Shown here: positions 11,225 through 59,368 of the stretch, in pieces
Layout: each line of letters starts with the position of its first letter
How positions within the stretch are numbered: position 1 is the stretch's first letter
DNA from: Escherichia phage V18
Length of the DNA stretch: 64,000 bases
Sequence record: NC_041937.1
Strand: one strand, 5' to 3'
Position numbers and translations under genes: made by a program
Notes under the pieces: model-generated
What the model was told of the DNA's origin: nothing
Database searches by the model: none
Seen by the model: the letters and a program-made list of their open reading frames with translations, nothing else

Positions 11225-11264
11225 AATGGCTCACTTTGTTAGTGAGCCAGAAATGGAGACAGAT

Positions 11265-11726: not shown

Positions 11727-11736
11727 GGTGGTGAAG

Positions 11737-14279: not shown

Positions 14280-14283
14280 TTTT

Positions 14284-14306
14284 AAAGGGGCTTCGGCCCC
14301 ATTTTA
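14284..14306 (+). terminator. intrinsic terminator
   Basis: ggggc-ttcg-gcccc hairpin then atttt. Confidence 0.6.
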
Positions 14307-14318
14307 GAGGTTAGAATA

Positions 14319-15407: not shown

Positions 15408-15410
15408 TAT

Positions 15411-16597: not shown

Positions 16598-16796
16598 AAT
16601 GATTACCAAAAACTACCTGAAAGTCCACAAAATGGGTCTTGGTGAAGAACGTATTACACCTGTGTTCCCTAAAGTGCTGTTCTTCCTAGAAGAGGGTGTC
16701 AACATGAACCCTGGGGATCCTAACTACGATTTGAAACGATTAGCTCTGGAATGCTGTGCAGAACGTATCTACCTGACTTCGTATCTGTACCACTAA
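16575..16796 (+). CDS. nrdD: anaerobic ribonucleoside-triphosphate reductase, internal segment in a second frame
   Basis: GLGEERITPVFPK...GDPNYDLKRLALEC matches the NrdD core; frame lost again near 16773 and 16843. Confidence 0.6.
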   Translation: MDTSVFGRMITKNYLKVHKMGLGEERITPVFPKVLFFLEEGVNMNPGDPNYDLKRLALECCAERIYLTSYLYH

Positions 16797-16941
16797 ATAG
16801 AAAAGTGACAGGCTCGACAGATGGCAAAGTAACGAGCATGGGATATGTAGAAGTTTCTTATCGAAATATAGCGACCCTGTAACAGGCGAGGAGAAATACC
16901 TTGGCAGATTTAACTTAGGCGTTGTTAGCCTTAACCTGCCA

Positions 16942-17808
16942 ATGATTGCGGCAAAAGCTAAGACGGAAGGTGTTGATTTCTTTGCAGTTCTTGACGAATA
17001 CTTGGATCTTGCATACGAGGCTCACCTTGTAAGGGTTAATCGTCTAAAAGGAACAAAGGCGGGGCAGAACCCCATCATGTGGTGTGAAGGCGCTCTTGCT
17101 CGCCTGGATCCCGAAGAGAGTATTGATAAACTCTTCTATGACGGGTACGCTTCCATCAGTATTGGGTATATCGGTGTGTATGAAACCTGTCAGATTTTGG
17201 GTAGAGAAGGCGACAAGGCTTTAGCTCTTGGAATCCTTCAGCACATGAGAGATGCTTGTGAGCGATACAAGAAGGAAAGTAGACTAGCATTTAGCTTGTA
17301 CGGCACTCCTTCTGAGAGTCTATGCTATAAAGCTGCAACCTGTCTGGATCGTGAATATCCGGAAGTGTTGAAGCACGAGCATGAATATCTCACCAACAGT
17401 TTCCATCAGCCAGTATGGATAAATAGCTCTCCTTTTGATAAGTGGGAGTATGAGGAAGGTTTTGCTATGATCTCCTCTGGTGGCAACATCGGATACGTAG
17501 AGACACCTAACCTGAAAAACAACCTGGATGCTTTAGAGGCCCTTGTTGACTTCGGGTATAAACACATTATGTATTTTGGTATTAACCAACCTGTAGATAA
17601 ATGTCTCAAGTGTGGTTTCTCTGGTGAGTTCAGTGCAACAGCTAAAGGCTTTGTATGCCCAGAGTGTGGAAACCATGAAGAGGGAACGATCAGTGTAATT
17701 CGACGTGTGTCTGGATACCTTTCCAGTCCTAACTCCCGTCCTTACAATAAAGGTAAGCAAGCGGAAGTTATCGAGCGAGTTAAGCACTACGGAAGTTGTG
17801 GTTGCTGA
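16942..17808 (+). CDS. nrdD: anaerobic ribonucleoside-triphosphate reductase, C-terminal segment
   Basis: CLKCGF...CPECG zinc site and glycyl-radical region IRRVSGYL. Confidence 0.8.
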   Translation: MIAAKAKTEGVDFFAVLDEYLDLAYEAHLVRVNRLKGTKAGQNPIMWCEGALARLDPEESIDKLFYDGYASISIGYIGVYETCQILGREGDKALALGILQHMRDACERYKKESRLAFSLYGTPSESLCYKAATCLDREYPEVLKHEHEYLTNSFHQPVWINSSPFDKWEYEEGFAMISSGGNIGYVETPNLKNNLDALEALVDFGYKHIMYFGINQPVDKCLKCGFSGEFSATAKGFVCPECGNHEEGTISVIRRVSGYLSSPNSRPYNKGKQAEVIERVKHYGSCGC

Positions 17809-17871
17809 TTCTTGACAAAAGCCACAAGGATGTGGCATATTATTGACACACAGTGAGCTAGGAGGTGCAGT

Positions 17872-17988
17872 ATGTCATCAGGTATTTATAAAATTTGCAA
17901 GTGTGGTTGTCGTTGCAATCTTCGTTGGTGCAAGGCACTAGACGATTTTATTTGGCATTGCCCTAAATGTGATGCGGAGTATCTATGA
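17872..17988 (+). CDS. small cysteine-rich protein (38 aa)
   Basis: GGAGG RBS; MSSGIYKICKCGCRCNLRWCKALDDFIWHCPKCDAEYL; ATGA overlap with nrdG. Confidence 0.3.
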   Translation: MSSGIYKICKCGCRCNLRWCKALDDFIWHCPKCDAEYL

Positions 17989-18458
17989 ACATTGTCGGAT
18001 ACACAGAAATATCTTACACCGAAGGGCCAGGTATTAGAACTGCCTTGTGGGTATCTGGGTGCCCACACGCTTGCCCTGGTTGCTTTAATCAGGCATTTTG
18101 GTCAAAAGATAAGGGGAGGGAGTTCACTGAAGAAGATTTGCAAAAAATCTTGTCAGATTTAGATAACCTGTCTGTGTGCGGTATCTCTCTGCTGGGTGGA
18201 GAACCCTTAGCATACTATAATGAGCCAGATATTATTAGCCTGATGGAGAAAATTAAGGAAAAATTTGGTGACAAGAAAACTATTCTTGTATATACTGGGT
18301 TCACATTTGACCATATCTCTAGTGATGTTCTTAAACTGGCTGATATCATCATTGACGGTAAGTATGTAAAAGATTTACCAACCAAGAAACCGTTCCGAGG
18401 CAGCGATAACCAAAGAATGTTTAAAAAAGTAGCAGGCGGTTGGGTTCAGGTAGACTAG
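17985..18458 (+). CDS. nrdG: anaerobic ribonucleotide reductase activating protein (radical SAM)
   Basis: 157 aa; CPHACPGC cluster near N-terminus. Confidence 0.85.
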   Translation: MNIVGYTEISYTEGPGIRTALWVSGCPHACPGCFNQAFWSKDKGREFTEEDLQKILSDLDNLSVCGISLLGGEPLAYYNEPDIISLMEKIKEKFGDKKTILVYTGFTFDHISSDVLKLADIIIDGKYVKDLPTKKPFRGSDNQRMFKKVAGGWVQVD

Positions 18459-18461
18459 TTG

Positions 18462-18491
18462 TTGACAAAGCTTGGTTTAGATAGGTATAAT
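18462..18491 (+). promoter_or_regulatory. sigma70-like promoter (TTGACA-18-TATAAT)
   Basis: -35 at 18462-18467, -10 at 18486-18491. Confidence 0.6.
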
Positions 18492-18522
18492 TATCGTAAA
18501 ATGAAAGCAGAGGAGGTGCCAA

Positions 18523-18636
18523 ATGGCTAAAAAAGCCTTGAAGAAGGCGTACAAAAAAGAGATTGCGCTTGAGCTTAAGAAAAAACACAAGCGTGAAAAG
18601 AAACATCATGAAGATGAAGAGGGGGTGCAACAGTGA
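18523..18636 (+). CDS. small lysine-rich protein (37 aa)
   Basis: GAGGAGG RBS 7 nt upstream; MAKKALKKAYKKEIALELKKKHKREKKHHEDEEGVQQ. Confidence 0.3.
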   Translation: MAKKALKKAYKKEIALELKKKHKREKKHHEDEEGVQQ

Positions 18637-18983
18637 CACAAGAACGTATCGATTTGGCTAATAAGTTTGTAGATCTCATTTTGCCACGGTTAGTTACTCA
18701 ACATGCAGATGCTATTTCTACTAATCTTGATGGCTTACGCCTAATGCTGAATCGCACAGATGACCCTCGTATTCGGGCTGATTTAGAAGCCTCTGCCAAC
18801 AAACTGGAAAAGTTCTTGCAAGTAGACACGCAAGAAGCCTTACACAAGATTATGGTGGAAGGTTTCTCTAAAGAATTTACCATTAAAGAGCTTAAGGAGC
18901 TGATCCACCAAGAAGAGATGAATATCCGAGTTCAGGCTGTTGCAAGCAGCATGGAAGCGGCTATTGAAAAACTGTTGCAGTAA
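18633..18983 (+). CDS. hypothetical protein
   Basis: 116 aa ORF, GTG start overlapping previous stop. Confidence 0.4.
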   Translation: MTQERIDLANKFVDLILPRLVTQHADAISTNLDGLRLMLNRTDDPRIRADLEASANKLEKFLQVDTQEALHKIMVEGFSKEFTIKELKELIHQEEMNIRVQAVASSMEAAIEKLLQ

Positions 18984-19021
18984 AAGTACTTGGCACATCT
19001 CAATCTGAAAGGAGTCCCAAC

Positions 19022-19387
19022 ATGGGTCGAGCTAAAGAAACAAAACGCATGCGTGATGAAGCTAGAGAGGCTCGCAAATCTGATCGCCTGCGTAAGGCTG
19101 CTGAGAAATTTGCTGACGAACGAGAGCACACTGCTCCAGCTCTCCGACCAATGAATAAGAAGCAGCAAAAGTATCTTGATTACCTAGGGTCGCGTAAAAT
19201 TATCATTGTAAACGGAGTGTTTGGGTCTGGTAAAACATTCATGGCATCTGCTATGCAGGTGACCTTCTGCGTAAGAATGAAATTGATAAGATCATTGTTG
19301 CACGTCCTTACGTTCAGACAGGAAAGACTTCAGGATTTAAACCTGGAAATGCAATGCAGAAACTGTGGCCCTATCTTCGAAGCATGA
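19022..19387 (+). CDS. phoH: PhoH-like ATPase, N-terminal segment (frame broken near 19255)
   Basis: Walker A GVFGSGKT; sequence after AMQ is out-of-frame. Confidence 0.7.
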   Translation: MGRAKETKRMRDEAREARKSDRLRKAAEKFADEREHTAPALRPMNKKQQKYLDYLGSRKIIIVNGVFGSGKTFMASAMQVTFCVRMKLIRSLLHVLTFRQERLQDLNLEMQCRNCGPIFEA

Positions 19388-19809
19388 TGGACACGATTTG
19401 TCGTCGTGTTGGCAAAGGTGCTTTTGCCGCAATGCTGGGAGACGGTCAGAACAGCCGTATCGAGATTTGTGAAGTTGAAAGCATTCGTGGTCGTAGTTTC
19501 GATGAGCGATGCTTTGTCCTGATTGACGAGGCACAGCAAACTAACCCTGAAGAAATGTTGTCAATTATCACAAGGATCTCTGATCAAGCCACCCTTGTAA
19601 TTATGGGTGATAATAGCCAACGTGACATCCCTGGTAAATCTGGCCTTGCATGGGTGACGGATTTCTTTACTCGTCATCCAGATCCTGAGGTTGGAATGAT
19701 CAGCTTTGATAGTCCAGACGATGTCGTTCGTTCTGGGTTGGGTCGTCAGATCGCACTCAATCTTATTGAGGATCGTGCAAATCATATTTGGACCCCTGTT
19801 TCCGAGTAA
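19354..19809 (+). CDS. phoH: PhoH-like ATPase, C-terminal segment
   Basis: VLIDEAQ (Walker B) and IMGDNSQRDIPG match PhoH; this frame extends upstream to ~19258. Confidence 0.7.
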   Translation: MQKLWPYLRSMMDTICRRVGKGAFAAMLGDGQNSRIEICEVESIRGRSFDERCFVLIDEAQQTNPEEMLSIITRISDQATLVIMGDNSQRDIPGKSGLAWVTDFFTRHPDPEVGMISFDSPDDVVRSGLGRQIALNLIEDRANHIWTPVSE

Positions 19810-19816
19810 TACAGAA

Positions 19817-19833
19817 GGGTGGTTATTCCACCC
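19817..19833 (+). terminator. hairpin, possible weak terminator
   Basis: gggtgg-ttatt-ccaccc followed by ttaaatatct. Confidence 0.4.
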
Positions 19834-19853
19834 TTAAATATCTAAAACAGTTG

Positions 19854-19882
19854 TTGACAAATAGGTAAGCTTTAGATATTAT
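19854..19882 (+). promoter_or_regulatory. sigma70-like promoter (TTGACA-17-TATTAT)
   Basis: -35 at 19854-19859, -10 at 19877-19882. Confidence 0.6.
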
Positions 19883-19910
19883 TATCGGACAAAACAGAGA
19901 GAAGGACAGT

Positions 19911-20222
19911 ATGGCTACAATACAAGAGAAACTGAATAAAATATACTGCCTGTTTGTCTATAACGGCGAGACAATTTTGGCAAATAAAGGATCCAAGAAT
20001 GTGTGGACCAAGGACAGCGGTGGTAATATAATTAACTTAGCGTTGCTACGTGAGCGCCGACACAGATTCTTTATCGAGTCTCGAATTATTGAAAGCAGCA
20101 CTTGCTACAGAACAGGCGATAAAGTAATTGTTGACAATGATACGTGGTATGTGGTAGACTGGCAATCATTGAGTTGTGATGCTTCTGACAATCGTAAGTA
20201 TTCCATAGTGATTGCTAAATAA
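19911..20222 (+). CDS. hypothetical protein
   Basis: 103 aa ORF downstream of promoter. Confidence 0.4.
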   Translation: MATIQEKLNKIYCLFVYNGETILANKGSKNVWTKDSGGNIINLALLRERRHRFFIESRIIESSTCYRTGDKVIVDNDTWYVVDWQSLSCDASDNRKYSIVIAK

Positions 20223-20282
20223 AGGTAAATGTGAATCAGGTTTAAATAAATAGCTTTCAACTTCCAATATTAAGGATTTCTC

Positions 20283-21329
20283 ATGAATTTAACACCTCGC
20301 AGCACCATGGTACACGGCATGAAAGAAAAACAGAACGGTTTCGAACCTATGAGTAATAAAATGTTTGGTATGCCGGGTGGTATCATGGAAACATACAGCT
20401 ACCCAACACCTGTTGTTGACCACGTTCTTTATATCGACGATTTGGAAGACCTGCAGGATCATATGTCTCGTCTGCAGACGATCCGTATGGCTCAGCCGGA
20501 AGAAAGCATTCGGGTGATCATCAATAGCCCTGGGGGTTGCGTGCACATTGCAATGGCTTATCTACAGGCATTCCGCGAGTCTCAGGCAAGCGTTGTTGCA
20601 CATGCTGAAGGGATGTGCTGCTCTGCGGGAACAATCTTATGGCTGGGTTGTAAAGAACGCACTGTGGCTCCGGACACAGAATTTATGTTCCACTACTATC
20701 AAGGTGGCACTTATGGTAATGGTGTGAACATGAATACTCAGGTCAGCTACTGGAAAAAACGTTTTGAACGCCTGATCGAAAAATACTACGGTGGGGTGCT
20801 GACAGAAGATGAGATCGCATCCATCACAGCTGGTGGTGAAGTGTGGTTGGACGGAGAGGAGCTGGCAGCTCGAACTGGAGCCATCATTCTGGATGAAGGC
20901 AACATACAACGCATCCAGAATGGACAAAAACCTAAAAAGCTTCTGGCAAAAGGTGATGAAGGCGTGTTAGGTGAAGCAGGTCTTCCGGAGATTCACCAGT
21001 GCACCTCTTTAGATGAGCTAGTTCATGCTGTTGAATCTGCGAAAGCGGTTGGTTCGAAAGGTGATGTTCACACTGTGTTCCTGAATCTGCAGATGGAAAG
21101 TGGTGAGACCATTAAGATTGCCTTAGGTGAGATTACCTCAGAAGATCTGCAGCGATTCTCTGTCGTTGAACTTCAAGACATTCTGTCCCAATTGAAGACA
21201 ACCCTGAACGGCGGTGAAGAGGTTAAGGTAAAAGATAAGACTCGCAAGCGTCTGGTGGACAATATTATTAAAACAGCAAAAGAACTCAATGAAAAAATCC
21301 TGGGTGCAGGAATTGTCGAAGAAGCTTAA
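20283..21329 (+). CDS. ClpP-like serine protease with C-terminal extension
   Basis: INSPGG, GMCCSAG (Ser) and FMFHYYQGG (His) match ClpP catalytic blocks; 348 aa. Confidence 0.75.
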   Translation: MNLTPRSTMVHGMKEKQNGFEPMSNKMFGMPGGIMETYSYPTPVVDHVLYIDDLEDLQDHMSRLQTIRMAQPEESIRVIINSPGGCVHIAMAYLQAFRESQASVVAHAEGMCCSAGTILWLGCKERTVAPDTEFMFHYYQGGTYGNGVNMNTQVSYWKKRFERLIEKYYGGVLTEDEIASITAGGEVWLDGEELAARTGAIILDEGNIQRIQNGQKPKKLLAKGDEGVLGEAGLPEIHQCTSLDELVHAVESAKAVGSKGDVHTVFLNLQMESGETIKIALGEITSEDLQRFSVVELQDILSQLKTTLNGGEEVKVKDKTRKRLVDNIIKTAKELNEKILGAGIVEEA

Positions 21330-32250: not shown

Positions 32251-32466
32251 ATGAAGATAGAAATATTTGGTGGAGCTGACAACACTCGTGGCCTGATTTA
32301 CCTTGAATTTGATGAATCATACCTGCCAGAGGTGTTAAATATAGACTCTGTTGCTGAGGCTTTGGGAGTAAACCCTAAAGAACTCCACTCTTGTGCTGAG
32401 ATCGATGGTTGGGAAGAGACCATGAACATTGATTTCAGTGAAGTGGAGGATGAACCGCTAGACTGA
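32251..32466 (+). CDS. hypothetical acidic protein
   Basis: 71 aa; RBS AGAGGAG; MKIEIFGG start; last plus-arm gene. Confidence 0.4.
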   Translation: MKIEIFGGADNTRGLIYLEFDESYLPEVLNIDSVAEALGVNPKELHSCAEIDGWEETMNIDFSEVEDEPLD

Positions 32467-32593
32467 CGCACAATTAGCTGCCCGGCTAAAGTGCTGGAAG
32501 CACCTATAACACATCTTTCAACTAAATTTCCTACCACCACAATCACTTACCTCCCGCACATGACTGTTTGCTTGTTTAGTGAGCAGTCATGCC

Positions 32594-32621
32594 TTGACAT
32601 TCTTGCCTATCCTGATAAAAT
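32594..32621 (+). promoter_or_regulatory. sigma70-like promoter (TTGACA-16-TAAAAT) firing into ORF-free DNA
   Basis: -35 at 32594-32599, -10 at 32616-32621; no credible ORF downstream. Confidence 0.5.
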
Positions 32622-33160
32622 TAAGTTCTTCTCTTTTCTTTTACCGAGTAATTCGGGTTTTCTGTTCTCTTCGGTTTGAAGGGGTATGGAGATACACCTG
32701 AGTGAACAGGGTGAACAACCGAACCATTAGCTATGGCATTAGCATGGCGAAGCGGACGGGTGACGAAAGAGGGGCCGGAGGACACCAGTCACTGCCATAT
32801 GATATATGGGTGATAACCTGAAGAGTCTGAATAAGTGTTTAAGTACCAGTCAGAGGAAAAGGTGAATGGTAGCCGAAGGGGGGAGGGGGGTTTCTTGTAT
32901 CTTTAATTTGTATATTATGTATACACTTGTAAACCAATCTAATCTGAATCTGTTTACCACACAAAGCGGATAGAGACAAATATTGCCTATTAAACTTGAA
33001 TTATTTATAGAAAATACCACAACACCCCTTAAGTCTTTGATTTACACACAAATCCTACAGATATTCAACCTCCATATTTAACATACTTGTAACATATTCC
33101 ATACTCTACCTGTCTGATCAATTTCCCAACTACATTCTCATATTTTCCCTGTCTGTACTA

Positions 33161-48718: not shown

Positions 48719-49153
48719 CTAAAAGTATTCATAGAAGTATCCATCTGGAGCTGGAATTTTTTCATGAATGTAGTAACCAATATATATTCCGGTTTCTCTG
48801 CTACAAGAGTTGTGGGATACCCATTCTTTAAGAACGTTACCATTCATGTCCAACCTCCTTACATTTTTGCACCGTCTACCGCTGGTGCTTCTATGCAACA
48901 GAATATCCTCCGTCTGCTTATCTTTATTTTCTCCCCAAGTCGTTAAACGGATATTATCAAAAGAGTACCCTTTGAAATCATCTATCCTGTCACAAGAAGG
49001 CTTTTTCCTTTTGTCGTATCCGCTGGCTACCCACTGATCATACAACTCTTTGTAACCGTTTAGGTATAGCCACTCCTTAAACTCTTTTTTGGTGTAAGTC
49101 GGAGGAGGGTGACCTCTTTGCTTGCTGTTGCACTTTTGAGCCTTGTACAACAC
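48719..49153 (-). CDS. putative HNH-family endonuclease
   Basis: PSCDRIDDFKGYSFDNIRLTTWGEN resembles the HNH_3 core (DxID...DN...EN). Confidence 0.35.
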   Translation of the reverse strand: MLYKAQKCNSKQRGHPPPTYTKKEFKEWLYLNGYKELYDQWVASGYDKRKKPSCDRIDDFKGYSFDNIRLTTWGENKDKQTEDILLHRSTSGRRCKNVRRLDMNGNVLKEWVSHNSCSRETGIYIGYYIHEKIPAPDGYFYEYF

Positions 49154-49263: not shown

Positions 49264-50490
49264 TTAGAAAGGGATCGAGTCATCGAACTCATACTGTGCT
49301 GGATTCTGATCCATTGGGTCATCTTCCTCATCATTTACAGGAGGAGCGTCTACAGTGTTTTGCTGTGGAGCTGCTTCCTGTTTGGCAGCTTGAGGTTCTT
49401 GATGGTCAGTGGACCCAGCACCGTTCTTGATCCAATCGTACAACGGCTCAGCCAGATTAGTCAAGACATCTTTTGCTTCTGCAGTAATTGCCGCTGCAAA
49501 ATCATCAACTTTCGTTTTCTTGTCAATACGGCGACAAGCGTTCAACACCGCATTGCCGACACTGGCACCTACTTCATCTTCAGTTCGGTTGGTGGCTTGA
49601 GCATACTCTTTCTTAAGCTCAATGGTGACTACGTGCAGTGTTTTAGCCACGCCTAGTGGGTCGTCCACCTTAAACCCGCGATCCAGGATGATCTGCAACG
49701 CATTGATGCTATGTCCCGTCTCCACACCGATAGGGTCGTAAGAGGATTTACGCTTGCCACCAGAGCCTTGAGTGCCGTTCTCTGCCTTAGGAGGATAGGC
49801 CTTGAAACCACTGATAATGTTTCCGGTGTCTTTGTCAACAATGGCTGCAACACGACCACCTACCACCAGGTCTTTAAGCTGCTCATCAGTGACAACCATA
49901 GCACCTTCGCCAATCTTGTGGTCATTAACAGTAACCACGTTGCCAACAATCTGAGTCACATCACCATAGATGCGTAAAACGTCCTGATTGGCATTCTGCT
50001 GAGGTTTCTGCTTCTGGCCTTGTGATTGTGCACCTTGTTGCTGTTTTTGCTGCTGAGTCGCTGCTGGAGCCTCTCCTGCACCCAGCTTAACCATCTTAGC
50101 CAGTGAGCCTTTGTAATAGGTCTTACCGTTATGCTCGTTTGCCTTCAAAGGGATATTTACGATCCATCCTGGCGTTACGGTTTCCCACTTGTCATCAATC
50201 TTAACAGAGACAGAGTCTTGATGACCCGGTTTAAGCAGTTTATCACCCATGCTGATCCAGACTTCTTCACCACCTTGAAGCAGGTTATCAGAGGAATCCA
50301 GTTCAGAAATCAGTAAAGAGATGGTGTGGCTGGATTCAATTTTCTTACCTTGCCACACAGTGGTTTTAATACCTGTTGTAGGATCAGTACCTTTGATAGG
50401 CTTGATGCTGACACGTTTAATCATGCCGTGAGCCAGTAAAACAGTTTCACGCGGATTCATCGGGTTAGCGAATTGTTGAATAACGCTCAT
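49264..50490 (-). CDS. SSB-like protein with conserved acidic C-terminal tip
   Basis: 408 aa; Gln-rich linker; C-terminus EFDDSIPF like bacterial SSB DFDDDIPF. Confidence 0.5.
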   Translation of the reverse strand: MSVIQQFANPMNPRETVLLAHGMIKRVSIKPIKGTDPTTGIKTTVWQGKKIESSHTISLLISELDSSDNLLQGGEEVWISMGDKLLKPGHQDSVSVKIDDKWETVTPGWIVNIPLKANEHNGKTYYKGSLAKMVKLGAGEAPAATQQQKQQQGAQSQGQKQKPQQNANQDVLRIYGDVTQIVGNVVTVNDHKIGEGAMVVTDEQLKDLVVGGRVAAIVDKDTGNIISGFKAYPPKAENGTQGSGGKRKSSYDPIGVETGHSINALQIILDRGFKVDDPLGVAKTLHVVTIELKKEYAQATNRTEDEVGASVGNAVLNACRRIDKKTKVDDFAAAITAEAKDVLTNLAEPLYDWIKNGAGSTDHQEPQAAKQEAAPQQNTVDAPPVNDEEDDPMDQNPAQYEFDDSIPF

Positions 50491-50855
50491 TATTTGTCTC
50501 CTTGTTCTTCGTTAGTGTTTGCCGTGTGTGCAAACCCTGCCTGAATTAATTTGTCCTGAACTTGAGCCAACAGGCCCATTGCAAAACTTGTGGTCCCAGA
50601 GAGAGCCATCAGCATATCTCGTTGTTGAGCTACCCAACCTAAGGCATAGTCCAAACGACGATATTTTTCTTCTTCGCGCAGAGCCTGAAATAATTGTTCA
50701 GCCTCCGGTTGTTGTGTGAGCTCCTGAAGTCTTCCCATGAAAGAAGAAAGCACTAGCAAAAGAGACACTTGATCTTTACTTAACCCTAAGAAAAATTCTT
50801 GAGGTTGTTCTTGCTCGTTCATTGCAACCGACGTTTGATCGTTCATTTGTTCCAT
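50490..50855 (-). CDS. hypothetical protein
   Basis: 121 aa ORF. Confidence 0.4.
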   Translation of the reverse strand: MEQMNDQTSVAMNEQEQPQEFFLGLSKDQVSLLLVLSSFMGRLQELTQQPEAEQLFQALREEEKYRRLDYALGWVAQQRDMLMALSGTTSFAMGLLAQVQDKLIQAGFAHTANTNEEQGDK

Positions 50856-50938
50856 TATGGAATCTCCGATTTTATTTGAACAACATAGAAGGAGACACTA
50901 TTTTAGCATCCCCTTCTGCAAATTACAATAGGTATTTG

Positions 50939-51184
50939 TTAGCCAATCACTTCAAAAGTTCCCCAATTCCCGTCCAGCAGGCAGGTGATCGGATCCCCAT
51001 CGTCGTCAAAGATTTCAAAGTTTTCAGCATCCAGGATGTGACCCTCGAACACGATACTTTCGTCTCCACCACCAGAAATAACAGCGTATTCCTTACCTTG
51101 AGTCAAGTTTTGACACCCTTTGCCACCAAAACCTACTTCAACACAACGTACTTTCTGTCCTGCGCGAGCAACTGCTTCAGTCAT
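50939..51184 (-). CDS. hypothetical protein
   Basis: 81 aa ORF. Confidence 0.4.
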   Translation of the reverse strand: MTEAVARAGQKVRCVEVGFGGKGCQNLTQGKEYAVISGGGDESIVFEGHILDAENFEIFDDDGDPITCLLDGNWGTFEVIG

Positions 51185-51201
51185 CTTAAGGTCTCCTGAT
51201 A

Positions 51202-51522
51202 TTAATCGTCAAGTTCAAAATAGATTTTAACAGCTTCATCAAAGATTGGAATCCCGATGTTGTTGATAAGCTGCCAAACTACCATATCTTTACCTGGATC
51301 TGGGAGAATGTCAACCTTTCTCCATGCGCTGTATACCCAGTTCGGACCGCCTTCTGCACTAACTGGCAGATTTTCACCAGCTTCTTGTAGATACTTATAC
51401 AGCAAAAGATATTCTGGATACTCTAGAACACTGTCCTCTGTAGTATATAGCAGTTCACGGTATACTTTTAAGAACCCTGCTGGGGTAATGTTTTCAGTCT
51501 TCATTTGCCGCTTCTCCTGCAT
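51202..51522 (-). CDS. hypothetical protein
   Basis: 106 aa ORF. Confidence 0.4.
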   Translation of the reverse strand: MQEKRQMKTENITPAGFLKVYRELLYTTEDSVLEYPEYLLLYKYLQEAGENLPVSAEGGPNWVYSAWRKVDILPDPGKDMVVWQLINNIGIPIFDEAVKIYFELDD

Positions 51523-51676
51523 TCATCAGGTCTGCCATAGCGTCACCCACGAAGAGGACAACCACATCGTTGACAGCGTCAGCATCATCTTTGTTGACGT
51601 TGCTGAATTTAGGACACACAGCAATGATCATATAGACACCGTTACCAACCTGAACTGTCCGTGTGGTGCACATCAT
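51494..51676 (-). CDS. hypothetical protein
   Basis: 60 aa ORF starting ATGATG. Confidence 0.35.
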   Translation of the reverse strand: MMCTTRTVQVGNGVYMIIAVCPKFSNVNKDDADAVNDVVVLFVGDAMADLMNAGEAANED

Positions 51677-51882
51677 GGCGGTATTTGTGCCTTCTTTGAA
51701 GGCGAAGCTTGAAGACGCTCCTCTAAAGTGTTACCGGTAGATTTCAGAAGCGCCAGCTCGTCCAAGGCATAGATGATATCTCCGGAAGTTAGTGTTGCCT
51801 TGCCATCAGACACCATAATCACTCCATCAGCACCGTCAAGCTTAGAGGCTTCAAAGATATCAATATCCCAAATATTTTTCAT
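51673..51882 (-). CDS. hypothetical protein
   Basis: 69 aa ORF, ATGA coupling. Confidence 0.35.
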   Translation of the reverse strand: MKNIWDIDIFEASKLDGADGVIMVSDGKATLTSGDIIYALDELALLKSTGNTLEERLQASPSKKAQIPP

Positions 51883-52214
51883 TACGCTTCCTCGTCGTCT
51901 AAGTAATCATCAAGAGAGGTGAAGATTTCACCGAAGTATTCTAAGATTTCTAGCTCACGTGTGGTGCAGCAAACATAATCTCCTTGGTCGTCCTTAATAG
52001 TGGCCTCTTTACCCAGAACATCTACTTCAAATTCATCGTTCAGCAGGACGGCCCCTGTGTAAACTTTGTCAGCTGTGCAGTCCCGAAAAGCAGAGTCCTT
52101 TTCCAGATAGTCTGGCTTAACCTTGGCTTTAATTCGTTGATATTGTTTGGTCATTGCTGTGGTCTCCTTTCGTTTTGATAGGGCCATTATATTAGGCCCC
52201 ATCACTGTTGTCAA
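51882..52214 (-). CDS. hypothetical protein (paralog of 52218-52472)
   Basis: shared KP(D/E)...D-AF(R/K)DCT...KDD(Q/E)GD. Confidence 0.4.
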   Translation of the reverse strand: MTTVMGPNIMALSKRKETTAMTKQYQRIKAKVKPDYLEKDSAFRDCTADKVYTGAVLLNDEFEVDVLGKEATIKDDQGDYVCCTTRELEILEYFGEIFTSLDDYLDDEEA

Positions 52215-52217
52215 GTA

Positions 52218-52472
52218 TTAATGTTCAGGTTTTACAAAAACTACTTCATTAACAGTGCACCAGACAGAGTCTCCTTCGTCATCTTTAAAGGTAAGGCACT
52301 GTGCTGAGTTTTCCAGCTCATCAATCTCTTCTTGTGATAAAGGGGCCCCTTCTTCCAGAAGGGCTTTTACCAGAGGGTTCTCACAAAACTCTGCTTCATA
52401 AATTGCACCGACTGTGCAATCTTTAAAAGCTCGGTCATTTGCAACGCATTCTGGCTTCAAAGTAATTTTCAT
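52218..52472 (-). CDS. hypothetical protein (paralog of 51882-52214)
   Basis: 84 aa; tandem paralog. Confidence 0.4.
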   Translation of the reverse strand: MKITLKPECVANDRAFKDCTVGAIYEAEFCENPLVKALLEEGAPLSQEEIDELENSAQCLTFKDDEGDSVWCTVNEVVFVKPEH

Positions 52473-52548
52473 CTTGGCAGTCTCCTTAGTTATTTAAAAA
52501 TCAACGCTCTGTTTGTGTGAAGCATCTTATATCTAATCTTACTTCTTG

Positions 52549-52947
52549 TCAATGACTATTTTCAATCAGCCACACAGGGTCGAGGTAGATTTGTTGGCGT
52601 GTTGCCCAATGACAAACTTCATTGTACATCTGCACCTCTTTGTCTGTCAATTCACGAATAGGCTCATCTATACCCTCATTTTTGTGGTAATCCCAGTCGG
52701 CATCGATTTCCCACAGCCATGACTTGTTGTCACCACGCTTACGCACACAGAAGTCACCAGGACGGCCTGCCAGTGCATTTAAGAACTCGTTCTCTGCTCG
52801 CTCTTGAAGAATGCTAAGGAGCAAAACGTTGGAGCATGACCGTAAAATATGCTTCAGCTCACAATCATCAATCTCAACTTCAATACGTTGTTTGACTGTG
52901 TGGGTACCTTTTACTAACATCCTACCTCCTCTAAACGAACTCTGCAA
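52549..52947 (-). CDS. hypothetical protein
   Basis: 132 aa ORF. Confidence 0.4.
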   Translation of the reverse strand: MQSSFRGGRMLVKGTHTVKQRIEVEIDDCELKHILRSCSNVLLLSILQERAENEFLNALAGRPGDFCVRKRGDNKSWLWEIDADWDYHKNEGIDEPIRELTDKEVQMYNEVCHWATRQQIYLDPVWLIENSH

Positions 52948-53125
52948 GGGTTGTGTTGTTCACTGCACCACAGTAAATGGAGTATCCCAGCCCATTAGAG
53001 TGCAGAAACCACGGCGTGCCGAAATTATCTTTCACGTAGACATCGCCGTTGCTTGTAAAGGGCCAATATTCTTCACCAAGGGTGAAATACCTACTCATAC
53101 CCTCAGCCAGATACTTTACTTTCAT
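52931..53125 (-). CDS. small protein of a tandem paralog family
   Basis: LGEEYWPFTSNGDVYVKDNFGTPWFLHSNG. Confidence 0.4.
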   Translation of the reverse strand: MKVKYLAEGMSRYFTLGEEYWPFTSNGDVYVKDNFGTPWFLHSNGLGYSIYCGAVNNTTLAEFV

Positions 53126-53349
53126 AGGTCCTCTTCAACAGCTACAAACTTGGCAAGCAGGGTGGTTCCGTAGATATGATACTCACCGTTTGCCAGATGG
53201 GAGATAAACCAGGCAATCCCTTCCTCGTCTTTAATCATCTTGTTTGCACGATTTTTATCGTAATAAACCTCGTAGGTCTTTCCTTCTTTAAAGAAGGACA
53301 GGTCTGTCATCTTTTCTTCTACAAAAGTAGCTTTAACCAAAGTTGTCAT
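53122..53349 (-). CDS. small protein of a tandem paralog family
   Basis: EGKTYEVYYDKNRANKMIKDEEGIAWFISHL. Confidence 0.4.
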   Translation of the reverse strand: MTTLVKATFVEEKMTDLSFFKEGKTYEVYYDKNRANKMIKDEEGIAWFISHLANGEYHIYGTTLLAKFVAVEEDL

Positions 53350-53720
53350 TGATCGGTCTCCTTCTTGTTAAGTCTGAATACTGCAATAATAGCATTCCCA
53401 AGGTGCAGTGTCAAATCATTTCCAAGATACCACAGCATCCCACGGTCATCTTTAATGAAAGGGTAACAATCTGGTGCCTTCCAGACATTGTACACTTTGC
53501 CAACCTGAAAGAAATCAGGCCCTGTTGGGATTTTAGTTCCAGGCCACACTTGAGATACCTGAACACATTCCACCTGCATAATAACAGGGATAGTCATGGA
53601 TGTAAATGTTTTTGTTGGTTCTACTACCATAAAAGTCTCCTCTTTGCTCAACAACACTTCCATGTGTTGATAGTTTACATTAGTGACAATCACCCCAATT
53701 ACGACCACACAAGTATTCAC
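53346..53720 (-). CDS. small protein of a tandem paralog family
   Basis: VGKVYNVWKAPDCYPFIKDDRGMLWYLGND. Confidence 0.4.
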   Translation of the reverse strand: MNTCVVVIGVIVTNVNYQHMEVLLSKEETFMVVEPTKTFTSMTIPVIMQVECVQVSQVWPGTKIPTGPDFFQVGKVYNVWKAPDCYPFIKDDRGMLWYLGNDLTLHLGNAIIAVFRLNKKETDQ

Positions 53721-56457
53721 CTGTGATCTGGAACGGGACTCCCATCATTTTAGAAGCTTGCCAGAAGCAATGCACCACCATTTCACCCACAGGGCTCCAG
53801 ATAAGCTCAAGCTTTCCGTCATCGTTCAGGATAGGATCGTACACCGTGTTTCCGTCTCTGTCAACCACTTCGTTTCCGTCCTCATCCTTGCGTGCCTTTT
53901 TGTACTTATGACCGTCGAACACATGAAGTTTGGCCTCCTGCTCTGCCTTAAATGCTTCCAGTTCTTCGATTGTGTCGAAGGTGTACACAGTCTTATACTT
54001 CGGTGTGTCAGGGACTTGAAGCTGATATTCGTCATGGTAATAGATAATACGACGAACACCTTCATCGTACCACCCACGCTTCACCATTTGGTGGTGCATG
54101 AGTATCCCAACTAAGTCACACAGCGATGCACCACCATTCTGTTGGTATGCATTAAGTAAAGAGTGTTTAGATCGGGTCCAGATAGCATGACCATCAAAAG
54201 AGTAGATAAACTTCTTACCCGTTGCTTCCCAGAATTTCTCCAGATCTTCTTTACGCCCCTTAAGACCGGGGTTGGCATCCCAAAGTGCATCGATTACCCT
54301 TTGTCCCAACTCTGGAGAGATGTCCAGCATATCTGCAACTTTATCTTTTTGTGCCCCATACATAACCCCATACGTGATAGGTTTACCGTCGTTACGAGAC
54401 ACCTCTCTGCCTGCTACTTTTGTATATGCTTCAGCATTGTTTTGGTGTGCGTCCCCGTTACTTACAACATCATAATACAATCCGTTGTCGAACTCAAAGG
54501 CACCCCAAGCCCCGATAAGCTGCTCTAAGTTGGACCCGTCAATACCGATCTCAAAGTATCCTGGAGGAACACCCCACAGACTACGCATCTCTTTACCCAT
54601 GACCACTTTAGGAGATGGTTTAGGCATGTTTGCACAAATACTGTGTTTCTGTCGGGAAGTGTTTGTTAACCCAGAGCTTTTAGCAGGAAGCTTATGGTCA
54701 ATCTTCAAACGTGGATGATTAAGAAGACCAGTATCAACCTTATCCTCCTTGATTGGATCAAGTACCGATCTGCGGTTTCGCAATGATAACCACAAGACGA
54801 TATCTTTAGCCATCTCTCCGTTCAATTTTTCAAGATTCGGGCATAGGTGTCCAAACGTATCTTTCAGTTGCGGAGAAGTAATAAGTGCCCTAGCTTTTCT
54901 ACGTATTTTCCCGAATACTTCCTTTTTAATCCTTTCGGAGTTAGGAAAGCTTCGGAACTTGTGCACGGTTGTCTGGAACTTAGCATCAGTTTTGTTCCAG
55001 AAGTTGATAATCAGGTCACAATACTCTGACTCTAAAAGCTCGTCCATATATGCATATACTCGTGCATCAACATCTGCATCAGGTAGAGCTTTCTTCTTGC
55101 TGTCTTTAGTTACATCCTTAGTTCTCCACATTGTCGGAAGCCAACCAGCACTGATCAGGTATCGCTTAATGTCGTCCTGGTTGCTGATTTTCATAGGTAT
55201 CTTGCAGTCCGGCATTCGCTTCTGCTGTAGATCACTTATTGCCTGATCCATTAGCTCTTTAGGTAAAGGTTGTGGTGTGGAGGTGCCCTTAATATAGCCT
55301 CTCAAGAAATCAGCCATCTTATCGGGGTCTTTGCAGCCCATCTCTTCACACCATTTTATCCCCATCTTACTGACATCTCCTGTAGAGGTAAATGCTCGCT
55401 TAGGCGGGGCTTTGAACTCTAAAGCGCTCATATCTACAGGATAGCCAAGCTTATCTTTTAACCATTTCCAACCATTATTGGAGATTGTCCCATCTTGGTT
55501 AAACGGCTTTTCAGGGAACTTGGGCCGCTGAGACATTGACAGCTCTTTTAAAGGTAGTTGCGGTTCAACACGATCAGCGATTTCTTTCATCCACGCATCG
55601 CAACGGTCACGTAAAGCAATAGCTCCATCTATGTCAAAATACACACCCTGACGGGCCTGCAGCTCCATCAGGAAGTGCTGCAGCATGCCTCGGCGTAATG
55701 CGTTCTTCCAGGTGATCTTCTTGAACCCTTTCGGCTTCTCTTTGGCAGGATCGTACATAAAGTTCTGCATGTCAGATTTGCCGTAGAATACACCTTTTGA
55801 TTCCGCTACCAGCTCTTTCCAGAGCAGCTCCTGGATGATAACGTCCTCGAATACACGATCCACATACTTCCACAACGGAAGATCGCGCCAGTCATCAATT
55901 TGAACTTTCTGGTTACCAAGGGCGTAGCCCCATGCCATAAGGCCGTGAGGACCAACAGGTTGCATTTTCTTAGTAACCGGGTTGAATACAGCGTCCGGAC
56001 AACCTTTTGGTAAAGGGCGATCAGGCCACAAGATTCGGCTCATAGCCAACGTATCAAACAGGTTAACCTGGTGGTCGTTGATAGTCCCCATGCATTTAGG
56101 ATCACGGAACATATCAAAATGAATACCGGATAATCTTTCCATCAGCATAAAGTCATAACTGTAGCAGTTATGGCAGTTCAAAGCTGTTGGTGACCAGTCG
56201 GAATTGCCTGTAAGCCAACCTTCCAACTCCGAAAAATCTGCTATGCGAACTTCAAAATCTTTATAAAGAGTTTTCTTTGCCAGAATAAAGTTCTTAGCCT
56301 TTTCTATATCCTCCTCGGAGTAGTGTGTGCGGCTATTTAGAGGAAGGAACAGCATAAAACGGTTCTTATTCAGCTCTTTAAACAGACCGCAGTGATAATA
56401 AAGATCTGGGTCTTCCAGCAAACCGGATGACTCAAAATCGAACGACCACATACTCAT
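53680..56457 (-). CDS. DNA polymerase, family A (Pol I/T7-like) with 3'-5' exonuclease domain
   Basis: 925 aa; N-terminal FDFESSGL (Exo I), motif B-like KPITYGVMYGAQ, motif C YYHDEYQ. Confidence 0.9.
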   Translation of the reverse strand: MSMWSFDFESSGLLEDPDLYYHCGLFKELNKNRFMLFLPLNSRTHYSEEDIEKAKNFILAKKTLYKDFEVRIADFSELEGWLTGNSDWSPTALNCHNCYSYDFMLMERLSGIHFDMFRDPKCMGTINDHQVNLFDTLAMSRILWPDRPLPKGCPDAVFNPVTKKMQPVGPHGLMAWGYALGNQKVQIDDWRDLPLWKYVDRVFEDVIIQELLWKELVAESKGVFYGKSDMQNFMYDPAKEKPKGFKKITWKNALRRGMLQHFLMELQARQGVYFDIDGAIALRDRCDAWMKEIADRVEPQLPLKELSMSQRPKFPEKPFNQDGTISNNGWKWLKDKLGYPVDMSALEFKAPPKRAFTSTGDVSKMGIKWCEEMGCKDPDKMADFLRGYIKGTSTPQPLPKELMDQAISDLQQKRMPDCKIPMKISNQDDIKRYLISAGWLPTMWRTKDVTKDSKKKALPDADVDARVYAYMDELLESEYCDLIINFWNKTDAKFQTTVHKFRSFPNSERIKKEVFGKIRRKARALITSPQLKDTFGHLCPNLEKLNGEMAKDIVLWLSLRNRRSVLDPIKEDKVDTGLLNHPRLKIDHKLPAKSSGLTNTSRQKHSICANMPKPSPKVVMGKEMRSLWGVPPGYFEIGIDGSNLEQLIGAWGAFEFDNGLYYDVVSNGDAHQNNAEAYTKVAGREVSRNDGKPITYGVMYGAQKDKVADMLDISPELGQRVIDALWDANPGLKGRKEDLEKFWEATGKKFIYSFDGHAIWTRSKHSLLNAYQQNGGASLCDLVGILMHHQMVKRGWYDEGVRRIIYYHDEYQLQVPDTPKYKTVYTFDTIEELEAFKAEQEAKLHVFDGHKYKKARKDEDGNEVVDRDGNTVYDPILNDDGKLELIWSPVGEMVVHCFWQASKMMGVPFQITGEYLCGRNWGDCH

Positions 56458-56515
56458 ATACAGTTCTCCTTAAAGGGGAGGCGGTTGTACTACCCCTCCC
56501 ACTCTTTGTTAAACA

Positions 56516-58222
56516 TTAAAAAGGCGTTTCATCATCCTCAAAACCAGGGACCGGGTCAGAGGATGGATCATCGTACTGGAGGTCTTCCTGCGTGTCAACA
56601 GGCTTAACAGTAGGAGTTACAACCTTATCAGCCACAACCTTGCCCATAGGTGTTTCTACAACTGCATGCTCCTGATCCTCAAACATAGCCTGAGGTCTCC
56701 AAACAACCTCCCCGCCTTCTCCGTCTGTAAACATTTGCATTTCTTTGTCCCAGTACCAATTACTGGCATCATGGAACTTACCTGTGTGCGGGTCCATAAC
56801 CAAAGTGTCAGCAATACCTAGAGTTTTTGCTGGACGGTTTTTAAGACCTACCAGACGGACACGTCCACGAGAACGATCCACCATTTCTTCGGCCTCGACA
56901 CCTATGACTACCCAACTCAACTGTTCAAGCCCAGCCGATCCTCGCAAATTCTCTTTTCGCACAGGATACCAGAAAGGTAACGGGTTACCATCCTTGTCCT
57001 TAGGAGGCACAATCTCTGTACGTTTGAGGTGAGCGATCACCAAGATAAACACATTAAACTGCTTACAAAACGCAGCCAGTTGGGTCATAGCCATGTCCAG
57101 TTCTTTTCGCTCATCCTTAACATTAAGCCCTGAAATTACCATGGACAGGTGATCCAGCACAATATAACGACAATGGTACAGGCAAACCATTTGCTTAAGC
57201 TTGGTAATCAACTCGTCCACCGGAATAGACCCGAAATGTTTGAACACTTTGATTTTTCCAGCTTTTGCCCATGATTGGTGAATCTCTGCGTGTTCTTGAT
57301 CAGTTAAAAACTGGCTAGGATCTTCAACAAACTCTTTAACATCAAACCCTAACTGGTTTGCATACAAGGAGTTAATTGCTTCCTCTGGGTCCTCCTCAAG
57401 ATGGATCATGCATAGACGATCATCCTCTTCATAGTCATCAGCCTTCGGGCATGTCGGGTCCATTAGGTATCTTGCAATACAGTGTTCCAGTTTTTTAGCC
57501 ACGGTTGTTTTACCGCCCCCTGATGGCCCTGTAAGCATTACGAGTGTCCCTTTGTGCAAGCCTTTTAGCATTTTTTGCAGTTTTGGGAACTCTGCGCTGA
57601 TATCTACCCCGTTGGAAGTCTTTTTCCGCAAAGACTCGATAGAGAAGTCTTCTAAATCCGACACAGCATCAGGCACATATTTAACAGGATGCCGGAACAT
57701 GTTGACAATATCTTCCAGCTTTTTAGCCTTCAGCATGTCACGGATATCTTTTACACCGTCAGGATCGTTTACCTCACCGGGGTATTCTACGTGGTAAACG
57801 TTATCAGCCATCAAAAATGCTGCAATATTGTGCGTGGCCTCGACACCTTTAATGACGTGTTTTTGCTTCTCTACCTCGTTAGCTGCATCGTTATCCATTG
57901 CCAGCACAACTGTTCCATAGCTACGGATAAACTTCTCATTGTTTGCAAAAGTATCTACTGCGTTTGCACATCCACAGTTAATTCCAACAAAAGGTAGGCA
58001 AGGTTTTCCTGCCAGATCACCACCGTTGATAACTGCGTCGATCCCGTCCTGGACCTCTTTAGCCCACTGCTTCACCTTTGCCGGGGCTTTAGCGTTGGTG
58101 AGAATCCCTTTTACTTGTATCTGATATGCAGCCTGCCATGCTGCAATAACATCACCTTCTCCCTCACAAACGTTAATCTGCTTACGGTTGTTGGAAGATG
58201 CACACAGCTTTTGACCAAACAT
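56516..58222 (-). CDS. primase-helicase (T7 gp4-like): TOPRIM plus DnaB-family helicase
   Basis: 568 aa; TOPRIM VLAMDNDAANE; Walker A TGPSGGGKT; acidic C-terminus ending EDDETPF. Confidence 0.85.
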   Translation of the reverse strand: MFGQKLCASSNNRKQINVCEGEGDVIAAWQAAYQIQVKGILTNAKAPAKVKQWAKEVQDGIDAVINGGDLAGKPCLPFVGINCGCANAVDTFANNEKFIRSYGTVVLAMDNDAANEVEKQKHVIKGVEATHNIAAFLMADNVYHVEYPGEVNDPDGVKDIRDMLKAKKLEDIVNMFRHPVKYVPDAVSDLEDFSIESLRKKTSNGVDISAEFPKLQKMLKGLHKGTLVMLTGPSGGGKTTVAKKLEHCIARYLMDPTCPKADDYEEDDRLCMIHLEEDPEEAINSLYANQLGFDVKEFVEDPSQFLTDQEHAEIHQSWAKAGKIKVFKHFGSIPVDELITKLKQMVCLYHCRYIVLDHLSMVISGLNVKDERKELDMAMTQLAAFCKQFNVFILVIAHLKRTEIVPPKDKDGNPLPFWYPVRKENLRGSAGLEQLSWVVIGVEAEEMVDRSRGRVRLVGLKNRPAKTLGIADTLVMDPHTGKFHDASNWYWDKEMQMFTDGEGGEVVWRPQAMFEDQEHAVVETPMGKVVADKVVTPTVKPVDTQEDLQYDDPSSDPVPGFEDDETPF

Positions 58223-58239
58223 CTGGGAGTTGGCCTTTA

Positions 58240-58509
58240 CTATGCTACTACAGACCAGTGCCCTTTCTGCTCTTTCGGCTTAGACCAGTCACGCTTTTTG
58301 AAACCAGACAGATTTCCGTAGCGGTCGTAATATGGGAAATATGTTGCAGTGACTGTCACACCGTCTTCTTGGGACAATGCTGATCGCACACCAAAATATT
58401 GTGCAGCCATCAGACCGATATTTTGTTGTGGGACAGGGACAATTTTAGTATTTTCTAAAACAGTCTCTACAGTTTCAACCTCTTTTTCATCACGATAGTC
58501 TCGTTTCAT
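58240..58509 (-). CDS. primase RNA-polymerase-domain N-terminal segment, frame-separated from the primase-helicase
   Basis: RSALSQEDG...YDRYGNLSGFKKRD resembles the T7 gp4 segment YSALTARGIS...YRDQNGNIVSQKVRD; no Cys4 zinc-binding domain. Confidence 0.55.
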   Translation of the reverse strand: MKRDYRDEKEVETVETVLENTKIVPVPQQNIGLMAAQYFGVRSALSQEDGVTVTATYFPYYDRYGNLSGFKKRDWSKPKEQKGHWSVVA

Positions 58510-58582
58510 ACTACCCCCACTTTTGTATCTTGTTGCAACTGGGTTAGGTTCTCCATAGCGGCTATATGCAGAGGATATAAAC

Positions 58583-59368
58583 TTATTCCCCTCTCCTTAC
58601 TACAGGCTCGTTTGCTAAGAATACAGCTTTTGCCCAGCCACGTGGTGTGAGGCTTCGAATCATCTTCGTTCTTGCACTCTTTCCACCAAGCTTGGCGTGT
58701 TGCATGGAATACCCGCTAACCACGTCAACTATTTGCGGGACAGGTTTTGTGTCCGGGATTATAAATCCATTACCTATCCAGCCGCAAGTTATTTTTGGAT
58801 AGGCATCACGTGGAGCTATAAATTCAGGAAACCATGGGTTTACATCATCCTCAGGTAAATACCCGCCATAGTCAGAAGGATGAAAACGGTAATCAGGTTT
58901 GCGCCACAGTGTGGACATAACACCAACAGGATTCTCTACATGCCACGGGCAATCGTAAATCTCTCCCAGCTCTTCCGCAACCCGAGCATCCTTTACAGCA
59001 TTAATTTGGATCATGGGGTCCTTAGCCAGCTTTTTCTTAAAATGTGCAGCACCCGATACCGCTAAATGCGTGCACGGAGGAAATGCAAGAATAAAGTCTG
59101 GAGCTGGATACATGCAAAAAGTTTCCTGAGGGAACCACGGGTCAATCCAATAGTCAACATAGTGAATGTTGGGATGATCGGTTATCACCTCTGCATAACT
59201 GCCGTGATCAGCACCTTCTGCGTTAAAGCACAGGCACAGATATCCAGCTTTTGCCCAGTCAATGACTGCACCACCAGACCCGTCAAATAGACTCCACACA
59301 ACACCTTTGTGGTAGTGTTCTTTGTAGATAAATTTCAATTTGCTGTCTCCTAATGCAAAAAGCCCCAC
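58583..59368 (-). CDS. putative DNA cytosine-5 methyltransferase-like protein
   Basis: 261 aa; SLFDGSGG (motif I-like), FPPCTH (PC motif), HVENPVG (ENV motif). Confidence 0.5.
   Translation of the reverse strand: MGLFALGDSKLKFIYKEHYHKGVVWSLFDGSGGAVIDWAKAGYLCLCFNAEGADHGSYAEVITDHPNIHYVDYWIDPWFPQETFCMYPAPDFILAFPPCTHLAVSGAAHFKKKLAKDPMIQINAVKDARVAEELGEIYDCPWHVENPVGVMSTLWRKPDYRFHPSDYGGYLPEDDVNPWFPEFIAPRDAYPKITCGWIGNGFIIPDTKPVPQIVDVVSGYSMQHAKLGGKSARTKMIRSLTPRGWAKAVFLANEPVVRRGE

Follow-up and report, generated by a model that had tools for sequence, protein, structure and literature searches.

In a 64,000-nucleotide stretch of the rV5-like Escherichia phage V18 (NC_041937.1; hereafter the window), the replication module combines a T7 gp4-type primase-helicase, a T7 gp5-type DNA polymerase and a single-stranded-DNA-binding (SSB)-like protein, and we infer with moderate confidence that the flexible acidic tails of the helicase and of the SSB-like protein, both of which follow the pattern of the bacterial SSB C-terminal tip, act as docking peptides. 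A first-pass annotation had drawn attention to the ends of these two proteins, ...EFDDSIPF and ...EDDETPF, as reminiscent of the tails by which T7 gp2.5 and gp4 dock onto the T7 polymerase, and translation of the open reading frames (ORFs) reproduced both ends exactly. The last eight codons of the SSB-like gene (49267–49290, minus strand) encode EFDDSIPF, in a protein that ends in ...NPAQYEFDDSIPF before the stop, and the last seven codons of the primase-helicase (56519–56539, minus strand) encode EDDETPF, in an ORF ending ...VPGFEDDETPF-stop. The last 30 residues carry a net charge of -10 in the SSB-like protein and -9 in the primase-helicase, and of -12 and -8 in T7 gp2.5 (...EADEDGDF) and T7 gp4 (...DWSNDTDF). 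Of the 265 window ORFs of at least 60 residues, no others close with an acidic run followed by PF.

The SSB-like tail closely resembles that of the host protein: the SSB of E. coli K-12 ends in ...NEPPMDFDDDIPF (...DFDDDIPF), the consensus of the SSB-like family is DFDDDIPF, and the homologs P0049 and P0052–54 end in EPPMDFDDDIPF, with a run of 12 residues shared with E. coli SSB. In the best 150 members of this 408-residue family, 113 ends are PF (69 IPF, 23 LPF and 14 VPF), with D-D-D before them, and the family shows the arrangement typical of bacterial SSBs, a disordered, low-complexity linker leading to an acidic tip of the form D-D-D-[IL]-P-F. Unlike bacteria, rV5-like phages have the same kind of tip on the helicase too. 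Among 63 non-redundant helicase tails, drawn from 117 homologs longer than 500 residues, 52 end in PF and 60 in an aromatic residue, and their consensus, D-[EDF]-D-[DN]-D-[ETS]-P-F, is that of the SSB tip except at position -3. That position is E, T, S or C in 50 of the 52 helicase tails and I, L or V in 106 of the 113 SSB-like tails, a systematic difference that suggests different affinities or partners. Some helicase tails, such as ...DFDNDTPF, also resemble the ...SNDTDF of T7 gp4, and acidic, Phe-ended tails on both helicase and SSB, a feature of the T7 arrangement, are present here, although the rV5-like tails end in ...PF and those of T7 in ...DF. The tip motif is kept down to ~30% and ~43% identity in the two cases while the neighbouring linkers vary freely. 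Judged from these alignments, both tails are functional-looking, conserved motifs, the one on the SSB-like protein being a bacterial SSB C-terminal tip and the one on the helicase a variant of that tip in which -3 is polar. No description of an SSB-tip-like helicase tail was found in the searchable literature.

One other acidic-aromatic end occurs in the window, on the ribonucleotide reductase small subunit NrdB (14319–15407, plus strand; ...NDAEEEIWEF). The tail of the ribonucleotide reductase small subunit docks on the large subunit.

The primase-helicase part of the module is encoded by a 568-residue ORF (56516–58222, minus strand; phrog_239) that comprises a TOPRIM domain and a superfamily 4 (DnaB-like) helicase, with Pfam matches to DnaB_C and AAA_25. 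Relatives encode a single protein of 692 residues, so that the ORF represents part of the gene only, and the intact ortholog P0057 (692 residues) is 100% identical to the window protein across its 568 residues. P0057 aligned with T7 gp4 by BLASTP (E 2e-21) over residues 88–605, from the TOPRIM/primase RNA-polymerase domain through the helicase, and on this similarity the helicase-primase is a true T7 gp4 homolog, as the first-pass annotation had proposed. A segment at 58240–58590 (minus strand) aligns to residues 2–116 of the relatives' protein and supplies the N-terminal part. The zinc-binding domain of T7 gp4 has no counterpart, the first 130 residues of P0057 containing no cysteine versus four in residues 1–65 of T7 gp4; since the N-terminal segment lacks cysteines, the primase has no T7-type Cys4 zinc finger.

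The start codon used by relatives is not present in the window, where the next in-frame ATG lies at 58509. At the junction between the Dcm-like methyltransferase gene and the primase-helicase gene (58583–58600; gtaaggaga|ggggaataag) the window is free of endonuclease sequence and has no ATG, GTG or TTG until 58509. In phage EmilHeitz (L013, 2665–3336), a gene for a 223-residue homing endonuclease sits at exactly that junction and its 3' end provides the ATG of the primase-helicase.

Next to the helicase gene, as in T7, lies the gene for a 925-residue family A DNA polymerase with an N-terminal 3'-5' exonuclease region (53680–56457, minus strand; phrog_17, phrog_8888). The assignment to family A in the first-pass annotation agrees with its only PDB sequence matches, which are T7 gp5 chains (E ~1e-15); its PF00476 score of 31.8 bits falls slightly below the cut-off of 34.3. 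A direct homolog search returned only sequences 99–100% identical, which were useless for conservation, and we therefore aligned the window polymerase with T7 gp5 and five divergent polymerases taken from related loci. A GKK/GKR pair aligns with R590/R591 of T7 gp5 and is kept in all six divergent polymerases of the group, so that only two of the four residues of the T7 front basic patch (K587, K589, R590 and R591) appear to be retained. The group enzymes are otherwise unlike T7 gp5, which has 704 residues, in carrying a different and larger insertion at the thumb site of the thioredoxin-binding domain: this insertion of ~130 residues (window polymerase residues ~255–420), conserved in the group and without clear similarity to that domain, may bind a different processivity factor. 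Relatives' replication genes are often interrupted by introns or homing endonucleases; the window polymerase is uninterrupted, the EmilHeitz polymerase coding sequence consists of two joined pieces, and in PVP-SE1 (L017) the polymerase is split by a LAGLIDADG gene and the helicase coding sequence consists of two joined pieces.

The third component is a protein of 408 residues (49264–50490, minus strand) that matches phrog_4477, annotated as of unknown function, over its full length (E 9e-173) and is called 'hypothetical protein' in almost all of 253 phage records. A profile search over 1.84 billion representatives returned 250 cluster members at E ≤1e-3. The label SSB-like is based on structure prediction and on the tail and cannot be read from the sequence: no Pfam family matched, PF00436 and PF21265 included, and a PDB sequence search gave no match. 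An AlphaFold2 model built with 25 homologs (mean predicted local distance difference test score, pLDDT, 74) comprises a predicted OB-type beta domain resembling SSB (residues 1–138), a disordered Q-rich linker (139–168), a small beta domain (170–231), a four-helix bundle (252–354) and a disordered acidic tail (358–408; 49267–49419, minus strand; pLDDT <50 for 358–401), and Foldseek comparison of the model with the PDB gave weak OB-fold matches. The comparison with T7 gp2.5 made in the first-pass annotation did not hold, hhalign of the family profile against gp2.5 giving a probability of 0.2% and the tail being of the bacterial SSB type rather than the ...DF type of gp2.5. Against E. coli SSB, hhalign aligned only the tail (92.7% probability), and the PF00436-type OB domain was not matched; thus, by profile comparison and modelling, the protein is not gp2.5-like and differs from bacterial SSBs in its body, a phage-specific one with two predicted beta domains and a four-helix bundle.

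A gene for a 121-residue protein (50490–50855, minus strand; phrog_7310) overlaps with its stop the start of the SSB-like gene (ATAATGA), to which it is translationally coupled; all rV5-like relatives checked have it ahead of that gene, and its product is a possible partner of the SSB-like protein. As to a second SSB in the window, no gp2.5-like ORF was detected, a weak tblastn match at 32341–32676 (E 0.065) lying in no coherent ORF, and none of the sampled gp2.5-type and bacterial-type SSB matches in the phage collection came from rV5-size genomes, in a check that was not exhaustive. On a distant contig (L020, 10001–11371), a short member of the 408-residue family (...DDDLPW) adjoins a T7 gp2.5-type SSB (PF21265, ...DDGEEPF).

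The positional ortholog of the SSB-like protein in phage RudolfGeigy (Bas52), Bas52_0087, is identical to it at 404 of 408 residues and ends in SFDDDIPF versus EFDDSIPF in the window. Bas52_0087 is needed to trigger the DRT10 (UG17) reverse-transcriptase defence and was predicted to resemble SSBs, with two OB folds and an FDDDIPF motif akin to the E. coli SSB C-terminal tip; phages escape DRT10 through D252V or Y351C in this protein, a genetic link ties it and DRT10 to the SSB-tip binder SbcB, with SbcB-dependent control, and its expression alone was neither toxic nor enough to trigger DRT10 (10.64898/2026.04.29.721553). The window protein retains both D252 and Y351. The helicase tail, the polymerase and the capped variants described below are not among the subjects of that preprint.

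T7 gp4 and gp2.5 attach to basic patches on gp5 through their acidic tails; PDB 6P7E captures a DTDF peptide in the bound state (PMC12339929, PMC8472574), and gp2.5 without its terminal Phe no longer binds the polymerase (PMC12339929, PMC8472574, 10.64898/2026.02.22.705581). In the mechanism that we propose for the rV5-like module, both tips would be docking peptides, the terminal Phe with its carboxylate fitting into a hydrophobic pocket of the partner that has basic residues on its flanks. The helicase hexamer would show six tips of lower affinity, with a polar residue at -3, and tether the phage polymerase encoded next to it, as the gp4 tails do on T7 gp5; homology to T7, conserved synteny and the partly conserved basic site suggest this role. 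The SSB-like protein, bound to single-stranded DNA, would show host-type tips able to engage whatever protein offers an SSB-tip pocket, the candidates being host factors, exonuclease I for example, and possibly also the polymerase of the phage; the case for host proteins draws on sequence identity with the SSB of the host and on the link to SbcB reported in the preprint. Recruitment through such a tip within a phage system has a precedent in phage HK620, in which the last six residues of the SSB, NDYPPF, are required for recruiting the phage-encoded Sak4 (PMC5928155), although the HK620 SSB belongs, as a distant member, to the bacterial type and Sak4 is a RecA-like annealase rather than a polymerase.

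Several observations weigh against this reading. The window tip itself has Ser instead of the consensus Asp at -4. The T7-specific segment with K587 and K589 is absent from the six polymerases, leaving the front basic patch half kept, and the positions of T7 R599/K600 are H/A in the window polymerase. Across six lineages the tail types of helicase and SSB co-vary inconsistently, about half of them matching: L015 pairs ...GSF with ...VPF, and in L020 the helicase lacks an acidic tail, the 408-family member ends in ...LPW and a gp2.5-type SSB is encoded separately, the co-occurrence of the last two calling into question the role of the 408-residue family as replicative SSB. Finally, the sibling phages Bas49, Bas50 and Bas54 are viable with 15 residues after ...IPF, so that a free terminal Phe cannot be an absolute requirement.

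Because the SSB-like tail is a bacterial SSB tip, mimicry of the host SSB towards its partners is at least as likely as T7-style docking on the polymerase. On such mimicry, which we place just short of probable, the tips would mainly engage exonuclease I, RecQ, PriA, Pol III chi, RNase HI and others, recruiting them to phage DNA or competing them away from host SSB. Consistently with this, the family consensus equals the host tip and some members match it throughout its last 12 residues, the DRT10 preprint mentions the tip of Bas52_0087, a protein 99% identical to that of the window, and connects it with SbcB-dependent control, and the window yielded no other SSB. Mimicry nevertheless leaves the tip on a gp4-type helicase unexplained, and it fits poorly with the viability of the capped phages and with the finding in the preprint that the protein, when expressed by itself, had no toxicity and did not suffice to trigger DRT10. 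The polar -3 residue of the helicase variant also speaks against it. The hydrophobic Ile at -3 contributes to SSB-tip binding.

The stricter model of the first-pass annotation, in which both tails mainly dock on the phage family A polymerase as those of T7 gp2.5 and gp4 do on gp5, is credible but somewhat doubtful. Its foundation in T7 homology was sound for the helicase and the polymerase, whose genes are paired in every distant contig examined, and the acidic, Phe-ended tails are real; the T7 gp4-like appearance of tails such as ...DFDNDTPF, the K/R pair at the R590/R591 position and the sharing of the last two residues by both tails, in T7 (DF/DF) as in rV5 (PF/PF), all favour it. What did not stand is the likeness of the SSB-like protein to gp2.5, and its near-exact copy of the host tip is left unexplained by docking on the polymerase alone, as is the consistent divergence of the two tails at -3. 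The loss of half the T7 basic patch and the uneven pairing of tail types across lineages argue in the same direction.

In both T7 gp2.5 and E. coli SSB, the acidic tail also makes contact with the DNA-binding surface of the same protein. An autoregulatory role, in which the tails fold onto that surface and tune binding to single-stranded DNA without any specific partner, is consistent with the AlphaFold placement of the gp2.5 tail in its positive groove (PMC12339929) and with the weak tail-OB binding of E. coli SSB cited in PMC5928155; it is nonetheless quite improbable, as generic acidity would then suffice, and neither the invariant terminal P-F in two unrelated proteins nor the 12-residue identity with host SSB would be explained. 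Chance resemblance between functionless low-complexity ends, conceivable in that the motifs are short, is refuted by their conservation amid freely varying linkers and by the confinement of such ends to two replisome proteins, and deserves practically no weight.

In some members of both families a further peptide follows the tip. A degenerate DNA scan found a conserved extension of 14–16 residues, AP[IV]GLQYx(3-4)[LI]x[CAV][MILF], after the ...DDIPF tip in 48 viral contigs; the cap peptide following ...IPF is APVGLQYGKSRIHAL. Its carriers are mostly ordinary bacterial-type phage SSBs with an OB domain near-identical to that of E. coli SSB and an end ...EPPMDFDDDIPFAPIGLQYPALLNCM, and they also include three gp4-like helicases and several members of the 408-residue family. 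Copies of the extension lie at L001 3935–3982 (DrSchubert), L017 13183–13230 (PVP-SE1) and L019 ~8017–8064, and in L022–L069. Within the Vequintavirus phages of the BASEL collection, three of eight have it (Bas49, Bas50 and Bas54) and Bas48, Bas51, Bas52, Bas53 and Bas55 do not; the SSB-like protein of the window has none and ends ...IPF-stop (49264–49290). The peptide itself seems to be under selection, since its copies differ by synonymous codon changes and are followed by different genes. No description of the extension was found in the searchable literature, from which the string IGLQY was absent; an extended Vibrio-type SSB gave no megablast match in E. coli genomes, and the text of the DRT10 preprint (10.64898/2026.04.29.721553) holds no per-phage data for the capped variants.

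The possibility that the extension is a by-product of homing endonucleases, namely their ribosome-binding site and start read in the upstream frame, was rejected as the general cause: no endonuclease accompanies the extension in PVP-SE1, the HNH gene behind the helicase-linked copy in L019 is a different one and has its start well beyond the stop, and an endonuclease of the DrSchubert type lies downstream at only ~5 of the 48 loci. Within the rV5-like phages it still holds locally, the extension being always accompanied by a full-length endonuclease. In DrSchubert, EmilHeitz and MaxBurger, the intact gene for a 207-residue HNH endonuclease begins within the 15-residue extension after ...IPF. 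The window has only a 5'-truncated HNH homing endonuclease remnant just downstream of the SSB-like gene (48719–49153, minus strand), which, compared with DrSchubert, has lost the first ~60 codons, including the Cys-rich segment, together with the tip extension, a deletion that restores the free ...IPF end of the SSB-like protein. It is a speculative and rather unlikely proposition that the '...PF' tip is a portable docking code by which unrelated phage replication proteins (gp4-type helicases, the 408-residue family, gp2.5-type and bacterial-type phage SSBs, and phrog_2544) address one set of SSB-tip pockets, host or phage, and that the extension, as a cap, a degron or a second motif, may turn the tip off or give it another target.

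The window as a whole is an ordinary rV5-like Vequintavirus with a replication module of a known kind. In a nucleotide comparison of the 8,959-nucleotide region at 49264–58222 with phage records, 122 matched, a single alignment spanned at least 80% of the query in 110 of them, and identity was 90–99% in nearly all; the top matches, at ~98%, were Vequintavirus (rV5-like) coliphages, among them inoa, naam, DrSchubert (Bas50) and rV5_ev147, and the gene order agrees with that of DrSchubert and rV5_ev147. The genome is that of a 137-kb myovirus, unlike T7, and every gene from 47 to 62 kb of the window is on the minus strand. On the plus strand, a nucleotide-metabolism block (10183–21329) holds ThyX (PF02511; 10183–11166), NrdA (11964–14279), NrdB, NrdD (15686–17808), NrdG (17985–18458), PhoH (19022–19809) and a ClpP-like protease (20283–21329). 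All the genes that the first-pass annotation had listed (class I and class III ribonucleotide reductases, ThyX, PhoH and the ClpP-like protease) are therefore present, and its view of them as a mosaic fitting no single textbook phage type fell away: the genome clusters cleanly with a well-described group, the very outcome that the annotation had named as speaking against it. The rV5 description of 2013 (PMC3606486) already lists this polymerase, the gp4d-type helicase and the NrdAB/NrdDG/thymidylate synthase set, and together with the high identity to Vequintavirus this makes the 'mosaic' the normal make-up of the group. Nucleotide identity, gene order and nucleotide-metabolism set are those of published Vequintavirus phages (PMC3606486, PMC8594841), from which the window differs by at least six small frame-breaking deletions and by the absence of the homing endonucleases that some siblings have at two nearby sites. 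Sixteen records titled 'Campylobacter phage' (e.g. MG065655 and MG065635) are ~98% identical to E. coli rV5-like phages and are probably mislabelled or contaminant assemblies.

At least six window genes are disrupted by deletions of 1–2 nucleotides relative to DrSchubert: those for a homing endonuclease (2354–2814), an N6-methyltransferase (7316–8129), NrdD and PhoH (at the coordinates given above), a 130-residue ORF (51497–51885) and the primase-helicase (56519–58590, minus strand; one nucleotide). Such breaks are most likely sequencing or assembly errors, since they occur about once per 10 kb and hit essential genes. In the primase-helicase, a GG has become G near 58243, one G being missing in GTAGTAGGCAT, and the gene is intact in the nearest allele, that of EmilHeitz (98.7% identical), so the split into 89 and 568 residues is probably an error of this kind. 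A programmed frameshift was rejected, the deletion being absent from the EmilHeitz allele and one of at least six similar ones in the window, and a split resembling gp4A/4B was rejected on the same evidence.

For phage diversity these data add little, the genome type, replication genes and nucleotide-metabolism set having been known since the rV5 paper, and an SSB-like protein with a host-type tip is already reported in a 2026 preprint (10.64898/2026.04.29.721553). Only the SSB-tip-like tail of the helicase and the capped variants are modestly new. The former places an SSB-tip-like end on a gp4-type helicase in an abundant group of E. coli phages, and links the T7 paradigm, in which tails share polymerase patches, with the bacterial one, in which the SSB tip is an interaction hub. 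The extension after the tip, apparently undescribed and found in many phage SSBs, is cheap to test, and the BASEL phages, with natural capped and uncapped tip variants of a defence-triggering protein, offer a ready-made experiment.

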